Below are positions 373 to 822 of a stretch of 64,000 nucleotides of DNA, one piece after another; the first letter of the stretch is position 1, and every line of letters begins with the position of its first letter. The notes beneath the pieces were generated by a model. That model searched no databases and was not told the DNA's origin. It saw only the letters and a program-made list of their open reading frames with translations. A program made the translations under genes and the position numbers. The stretch comes from an uncultured Actinomycetes bacterium (GTDB taxonomy: Bacteria; Actinomycetota; Thermoleophilia; UBA2241), in assembly GCA_963767005.1 (NCBI GenBank), contig CAVYCN010000012.1, forward strand, positions 109,089 to 173,088. The letters run 5' to 3'.

Positions 373-822
373 TCAGCCTCCCCAGATCTCCCCGGCGACC
401 GCCAGCACCTCGGCGGCGTGACCCGCGGCCGAGACGTTCTCGAACACCCTGCGGACGGTGCCGTCGGGCTCGAGCAGAAAGGTCGTGCGCCGGGCCGACG
501 GCTTGTCGGGCTTGTCGACCCCGAAGCCCAGGATCAGCGCGCGATCGGGGTCGCAGAGCAGCGGGAACCGCAGATCGTACTTCGTGGCGAAGCTCTGGTT
601 CGCGTCCGGCTTGTCGACGCTTGCCCCGATCACCTGCACGCCGAGGGCCGCGAACTCTCCGAGCAGGCCGTTGAACTCAACGGCTTCCGTCGTTCAGCCC
701 CCGGTGTTGGCCTTGGGAAAGAAGTAGAGGACGGTGCGGGCCCCCGGCGCTCCCAGGTCGAAGCTGCGTCCGTCGTGTGCTGTGCCGGTGACGGCCGGCG
801 CCCTGTCGCCCTCTCTGAGCAT
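373..822 (-). CDS. bcp: BCP/PrxQ peroxiredoxin, probable selenoprotein (Sec at in-frame TGA 694-696)
   Basis: ORFs 694..1104 and 373..639 are one frame: MLREGDRAP...LYFFPKANTGG*TTEAVEFNGLL...VIGASVD...FPLLCD...RRTTFLL. The TGA replaces the peroxidatic Cys of PxxxTxxC. Confidence 0.9.
667..696 (-). promoter_or_regulatory. Candidate bacterial SECIS element
   Basis: Minus strand reads TGA ACGACGGAA GCCGTTGA-GT-TCAACGGC: a perfect inverted repeat starting 9 nt after UGA, with GU at the apex. Confidence 0.7.

Follow-up and report, generated by a model that had tools for sequence, protein, structure and literature searches.

The UGA at catalytic codon 43 of a small peroxiredoxin (Prx) gene from an uncultured Thermoleophilia bacterium is very probably decoded as selenocysteine (Sec). 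The gene lies on the minus strand at positions 373–822 of the window, i.e., the whole 64,000-nt stretch of DNA that was analysed, and its product is of the BCP/PrxQ type. A preliminary description of this DNA had claimed a 149-aa Sec-BCP whose frame is interrupted only by a TGA at the peroxidatic Cys and which annotation would split. That reading was confirmed: there are 149 codons with a single internal TGA, this TGA is codon 43 and aligns with the catalytic Cys of solved BCPs, and in public protein collections the gene appears as two separate entries, of 42 and 88 aa.

The gene and its product

The features of the locus, all on the minus strand, are these:

373–822, minus: CDS of a 149-aa BCP/PrxQ peroxiredoxin with one in-frame TGA read through; ATG at 822–820, stop TGA at 375–373 (translation, Pfam, structure model)
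694–696, minus: in-frame TGA, codon 43, the peroxidatic position, predicted selenocysteine (in alignment, the Xanthomonas and Burkholderia BCPs have their catalytic Cys here; TGA in 93/114 homologous genes)
694–717, minus: active-site motif P36-x-x-x-T40-x-x-U43 (PKANTGGU), read from the sequence; PxxxTxxU as in PMC13188914
667–684, minus: bSECIS-type hairpin within the CDS, stem GCCGUUG/CAACGGC, loop AGUU at 677–674 (folding, fixed rare codons, loop G, one compensatory pair)
679–681, minus: Val48 (GTT) where an alpha2 resolving Cys would stand (+5); its codon is part of the hairpin's 5' arm (sequence and codon comparison)
553–555, minus: Cys90, the sole Cys (FPLLCD), on a beta strand (strand E88–90 in the model; Ser in solved BCPs)
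484–486, minus: Arg113, the conserved catalytic Arg of peroxiredoxins (ARRTTF versus ERSTF; alignment to PDB 5iph and 5enu)
827–832, minus: Shine-Dalgarno-like GGAGGG ending 4 nt before the ATG, read from the sequence

Translation of the minus strand from 822 to 373 places codon 43 in the context YFFPKANTGG*TTEAVEFNG, the asterisk being the TGA. Read with table 11, the gene becomes two ORFs, one upstream that ends at 694 and one of 88 aa at 373–639. The read-through form was not found in public protein collections by a look-up that reads U as C and is blind to U-bearing records. The plus strand of 373–822 also has a stop-free frame, which lacks a start of its own in that range and was taken as a shadow of the minus-strand gene. 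A promoter scan gave 0 sigma-70-like sites, the single terminator-like match lay inside the CDS and was ignored, and none of the 20 sequencing runs listed for the gene is an RNA run.

With the TGA read through, residues 5–125 matched Pfam AhpC-TSA (PF00578) with an E value of 1.2e-29 and 103.2 bits, the cut-off being 26. The AlphaFold model, made from a 39-sequence alignment, had a pLDDT of 96.9; BCP/PrxQ structures filled its top 16 Foldseek ranks, and its TM scores to Prxs were 0.83–0.91. The top 12 PDB sequence matches were all BCP-type entries, the best being Xanthomonas and Burkholderia BCPs, on whose catalytic Cys the TGA falls. The Prx superfamily is defined by a Pxxx(T/S)xxC/U motif and a conserved Arg (PMC8945050, PMC13188914), and P36, T40, U43 and R113 are present here on a thioredoxin-like Prx fold. 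Placement in the BCP/PrxQ subfamily follows the nearest solved relatives, the length of about 150 aa and the lack of a Prx1 C-terminal extension. The two best NCBIfam models, the PrxQ/BCP equivalogs NF053650 and NF006960, scored below their curated cut-offs (79.6 versus 260 and 74.9 versus 140 bits); these are narrow models, and on these scores the protein does not count as an equivalog of the enzymes of the E. coli or Deinococcus type.

Among the best PDB sequence matches is the BCP/PrxQ of Xanthomonas campestris (PDB 5iiz, 3gkk, 5iph; E about 1e-22), which has the motif FYPKDSTPGCTTEGLDFNALL compared to FFPKANTGGUTTEAVEFNGLL here, and differs in having Cys84 in helix alpha3, where Ala79 aligns here. 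The top Foldseek match, the 1-Cys BCP of Burkholderia ambifaria (PDB 5enu; TM 0.85, 35% identity), shares the TTExxxF helix and likewise lacks both an alpha2 and an alpha3 Cys, but carries Cys where Sec is predicted here. The absence of a resolving Cys at +5, as first described, also held, Val48 occupying that position, and with Ala79 at the alpha3 site the protein fails as a 2-Cys BCP; none of 39 family genes has a Cys at +5 or at +34 to +38. A resolving Cys is missing from roughly a third of PrxQ proteins (PMC4749874), so the architecture, Sec aside, is of the usual 1-Cys type.

Conservation of the TGA and of a hairpin downstream

A BCP match was found in 59 of 61 genomes, i.e., the source genome and 60 relatives, and in the best 30 loci fetched from them TGA stood at the catalytic codon in 30/30. 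These 30 loci plus 80 loci from a GTDB scan, minus 3 exact duplicates, gave 114 distinct genes from 110 loci. At the catalytic site 93 have TGA, 16 have Cys (TGC/TGT) and five have Ser or Ala, counts that are not independent, since the homologues are related, and that come from a scan of genome contigs seeded with words of this Prx protein itself. TGA is common to the 39 family genes, at 50–99% identity, and to 54 more distant genes, many of them from Acidobacteriota; the closest named records are uncultured Thermoleophilia or Actinomycetes. A selA match was present in 35 of the 36 genomes with TGA in their best BCP match (position checked in 30), the exception being 51% complete, and TGA occurred in any listed BCP match of 0/10 selA-negative genomes at ≥96% completeness; since these genomes are kin, the counts are given without a statistical test.

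The inverted repeat GCCGTTGA-GT-TCAACGGC begins exactly 9 nt past the TGA (684–667) and covers codons A47-V48-E49-F50-N51-G52. The preliminary description had this repeat and its position right but not the loop: since a 2-nt GT loop cannot form, GCCGTTGAGTTCAACGGC (684–667) folds with a 7-bp stem and a 4-nt AGUU loop, 16 nt from the UGA. For a bSECIS, PMC13188914 gives a loop of 3–9 nt and a stem of 4–16 bp (Fig. 2 legend), together with a G in the first two loop positions, a distance of 16–37 nt from the UGA and an MFE of −7.5 or lower. The AGUU loop, 7 bp, 16 nt and −15.7 kcal/mol found here lie within these bounds. Energy as proof was rejected: the z score was −1.54, 17 of 200 shuffles being equally good in this genome of 71% GC, and synonymous recoding gave a median z of −0.39. 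Judged by sequence comparison, the hairpin is beyond chance by its conservation, not by its energy.

That conservation is plain at the codon level. Within the hairpin, Val is GTT in 39/39 family genes, compared to 14 of the 506 Val codons that these genes have outside it and 1.2% genome-wide; Glu is GAA in 37/39, compared to 16/210 Glu codons elsewhere in those genes; and Ala is GCC in 39/39. The loop G is present in 92 of the 93 TGA genes, in 2 of the 16 Cys genes and in none of the five Ser/Ala genes, and an approximated bSECIS model (after PMC13188914) fits 87/93 TGA genes versus 3/16 Cys genes. One Cys gene, L061, is nested in a well-supported clade of 25 TGA genes and has its loop G replaced by A. 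The tree was a quick, unrooted IQ-TREE run on 111 of the 114 genes (three were omitted, two for frameshifts and one for excess length), so no direction of Sec gain or transfer is claimed beyond the nested L061. Six of the 54 non-family TGA genes retain a resolving Cys (UxxxxC); a SECIS thus does not forbid one. Most of the BCP homologues retrieved from Acidobacteriota (L059–L122) have TGA too, and their hairpin, with a GUU loop, is paired in another way.

An alignment of orthologues had been proposed as a check, for alternation of Cys with TGA and for covariation in the hairpin. TGA was kept, and distant homologues alternate between TGA and Cys; the covariation was weak, in one pair. Eight distinct actinobacterial hairpins had 91% of cells paired versus 29–59% in slid controls, and in these a C-G/G-C swap at one stem pair accompanies a change of Gly to Arg, Gln or His. 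The covariation score, matched by 30 of 500 shuffles and resting on one pair in eight sequences, is only suggestive, and in 11 mostly acidobacterial hairpins, taken in a single register with bulge positions differing, covariation was not above slid controls. An ordinary Cys BCP turned into a pseudogene, or misread in sequencing, by a change of TGC or TGT to TGA would account for the splitting of the gene by gene callers, but this reading is refuted by the conservation of the TGA across genera and phyla, and with the frame intact on both sides of the TGA, the rare hairpin codons frozen and the TGA tracking selA, its probability is practically nil.

In 40 family loci, a cold-shock/metallo-hydrolase cluster lies upstream in 35 and a fumarase/aspartase gene downstream in 15. 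A 67-aa single-cluster ferredoxin, encoded at 943–1146 on the plus strand of the window and divergent from the Prx gene, stands beside Prx in 21/40. Between the convergent ferredoxin and metallo-hydrolase genes, at 1141–1262, are two tandem copies of a 58-nt GC-rich repeat that has 135 blastn matches genome-wide at E ≤ 1e-3, often in tandem arrays, and is REP/BIME-like.

Five relatives have a tandem BCP paralogue directly upstream of the Sec gene (L051:2486-2935, L033:994-1443, L044:1978-2427, L057:2504-2947 and L063:2525-2935). These paralogues have Ser or Ala at the catalytic site, lack the PxxxTxxC motif and the SECIS G, and form one clade (SH-aLRT 99) inside the family's Sec genes; a tandem copy in L043/L056 retains TGA. 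On sequence grounds, the Ser/Ala copies look like a pseudo-peroxiredoxin that arose from the Sec gene and has been conserved. The Prx locus of the window has no such copy.

Selenium machinery and the decoding of UGA

The source genome (3.44 Mb, 19 contigs) is rated 100% complete with 4.87% contamination. It was expected at the outset that selABCD would be found elsewhere in it, and they were. The selD, selA and selB genes are clustered at C4:372008-376397, all over curated cut-offs, and 13 kb away is selC, the tRNA-Sec gene, with 68.1 bits against a gathering threshold of 47. A heuristic scan for selenoproteins, in which 244 TGA candidates were judged by eye and 16 inspected, and which may miss Sec near protein ends and double-Sec proteins, gave four convincing genes: the Prx gene and the following three, whose Sec motifs are catalogued ones.

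C4:372038: SelD, with its own in-frame TGA (UASK, UxxK motif) and a downstream hairpin
C19:163121: FdhA, identified by motif alone (UHAP, UHxP motif), with a downstream hairpin
C7:106937 (L138:2220-2888), minus: TIGR02187 protein disulfide oxidoreductase, above cut-off (UPHC, UxxC motif), with a downstream hairpin

The UGA might instead be read as Cys or Trp, through a Cys-inserting tRNA or a general reassignment of UGA. Cys insertion at UGA by SelB-type systems does occur, and homologues of the Prx gene have Cys at the codon 43 site. Against this, TGA is the normal stop of the same gene and ends many reading frames in the genome, the sole tRNA with a TCA anticodon among the 50 found by ARAGORN is tRNA-Sec, and selA and selD are intact. 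Reading of UGA as Cys or Trp is therefore extremely improbable, and decoding as Sec is retained.

A 2006 survey placed Actinobacteria among the selenoprotein-rich phyla (PMC1794560). The preliminary description held the Sec trait to be uncommon in Actinomycetota, which does not fit this lineage: selA gave a match in 34 of the 36 genomes of the same family, and in 49 of the 61 sampled across the class, and Sec is the norm in this Thermoleophilia lineage, not rare. The standing of Actinobacteria in the 2006 survey mainly reflects Symbiobacterium, which has since been transferred to another phylum.

The genome also encodes complete pyrrolysine machinery, all above NCBIfam cut-offs, with pylS at C3:236183-236905, tRNA-Pyl at C3:242986-243058, and pylB, pylC and pylD at L136:15106-18497 on the minus strand. 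Because of this, the source organism likely uses 22 amino acids. Within the family, 32 of 36 genomes gave a pylS match, and in the rest of the class 1 of 24 did; in PMC9630628, PylRS is listed for only two Actinobacteria. At least 13 methyltransferase genes have an in-frame TAG at the Pyl position, as judged by motif, an unusually large pyrroproteome. They are MtbB-like (C2:297308, C3:158114, C6:54765, C11:80586 and C18:98244, 102308, 96682 and 36346) or MttB-like (C3:159499, C4:146370, C4:256092, C6:53360 and C18:34861); two TAG methyltransferase genes were tested, and both were above the TIGR02368 MtbB cut-off.

Recycling, known relatives and significance

From established bacterial Sec biology, the hairpin just downstream of the UGA would be the SECIS element, and SelB carrying Sec-tRNA would bind its G-containing loop 16 nt past the UGA and deliver Sec43. 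The Sec43 selenolate, held by Thr40 and Arg113, would then reduce H2O2 or organic peroxides and be oxidized to a selenenic acid. As neither helix alpha2 nor helix alpha3 has a resolving Cys, the protein would be a “1-Sec” enzyme that requires an outside thiol to resolve this acid. In the absence of selenium, translation would presumably end after 42 residues, and a Cys-type AhpC would remain; the genome encodes an AhpC-like Prx of the Cys type, along with two more PF00578 proteins.

Candidate donors can be named. Two thioredoxins (Trx) and one thioredoxin reductase (TrxR) scored above cut-off, one pair being adjacent on C8, while gshB and bshC were not found in the genome and an MshC-like match was below cut-off. 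The B. cenocepacia 1-Cys BCP can be reduced directly by Trx, and is recycled best by GSH/Grx (PMC8945050). Because Trx and TrxR are encoded, gshB and bshC were not found and Trx can reduce a 1-Cys BCP, Trx/TrxR would be the likeliest donor, with the Sec-containing TIGR02187 oxidoreductase as second candidate. We lean somewhat towards Trx as the physiological reductant of the Sec-BCP.

The protein might be a selenoprotein with a different cycle, with resolution of the selenenic acid by Cys90 or by a partner chain, or it might serve in a redox relay or as a chaperone and not be a bulk peroxidase. What is at stake here is the recycling step, and Sec insertion fits either case. Cys90 is found in 14 of the 39 family genes, five relatives have the catalytically dead BCP paralogue beside the Sec gene, and the searches for gshB, bshC and MshC suggest that the genome may lack the small-thiol route by which 1-Cys BCPs are usually recycled. 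However, 19 of the 39 family genes lack any Cys (two of these are frameshifted), Cys90 lies on a strand and aligns with Ser in solved BCPs, the dead paralogue is missing from the Prx locus of the source genome, and Trx is reported to reduce a 1-Cys BCP directly. Cys90, which is not conserved, is unlikely to be a resolving Cys, and a different cycle as a whole is unlikely as well. Less likely still is a composite picture of a family-wide “1-Sec” BCP with no glutathione, mycothiol or bacillithiol route, recycled by the TIGR02187 UxxC protein in a Sec-to-Sec relay, with a regulatory Ser/Ala-site dead copy in some relatives, all in a 22-amino-acid actinobacterial family. The preferred reading remains a peroxidatic Sec-BCP that depends on an external thiol for its resolution.

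“Peroxiredoxin (Prx)”, COG1225 (Bcp)/PF00578, with the motif TxxU, is a listed bacterial selenoprotein family (PMC9312934, table; PMC13188914, Table 1). In the Sargasso Sea set, Sec-Prx ranked second in abundance among the families, with 43 genes (PMC1088965), and in 2016 it comprised 91 proteins in 78 organisms (PMC5029168). Like the members of this COG1225 family, the Prx protein described here matches PF00578, belongs to the BCP subfamily and has TxxU with one Sec, and its gene has an in-frame bSECIS with the loop G 16 nt past the UGA and a host with selABCD. It differs from the common Sec-Prx in having Thr-Gly-Gly-U, compared to Thr-Pro-Gly, and in lacking a resolving Cys, and its host lineage, uncultured Thermoleophilia, did not come up in the literature searched on selenocysteine. 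Like PrxU of Eubacterium acidaminophilum it is a peroxiredoxin with Sec at the peroxidatic site, but the PrxU model NF040737, with 233 positions, gave only a weak match (26.9 bits versus a cut-off of 270), and identity with PrxU was rejected, as was identity with Prx-SUH (NF045827, 21.6 versus 298 bits). The report of Sohling et al. in 2001 on PrxU of E. acidaminophilum is the reference that reviews give for the experimentally verified Sec-Prx family. No report of a Sec-BCP of Thermoleophilia was found among the open-access articles listed on selenocysteine, BCP/PrxU and pyrrolysine.

In sum, the Prx gene is a well-supported further member of the already catalogued Sec-BCP family, and the known picture of bacterial selenoproteins is unchanged by it. 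The family genes and their relatives offer a small natural set of sequences on which SECIS rules can be tested, since loop G and UGA go together almost without exception and the Cys revertant has lost that G, and a small Sec-BCP lacking a resolving Cys is a convenient model for the recycling of a lone selenenic acid. The annotation is corrected as well: because public collections hold the gene as a 42-aa and an 88-aa fragment, an antioxidant enzyme of a whole Thermoleophilia family and of many Acidobacteriota is being missed.
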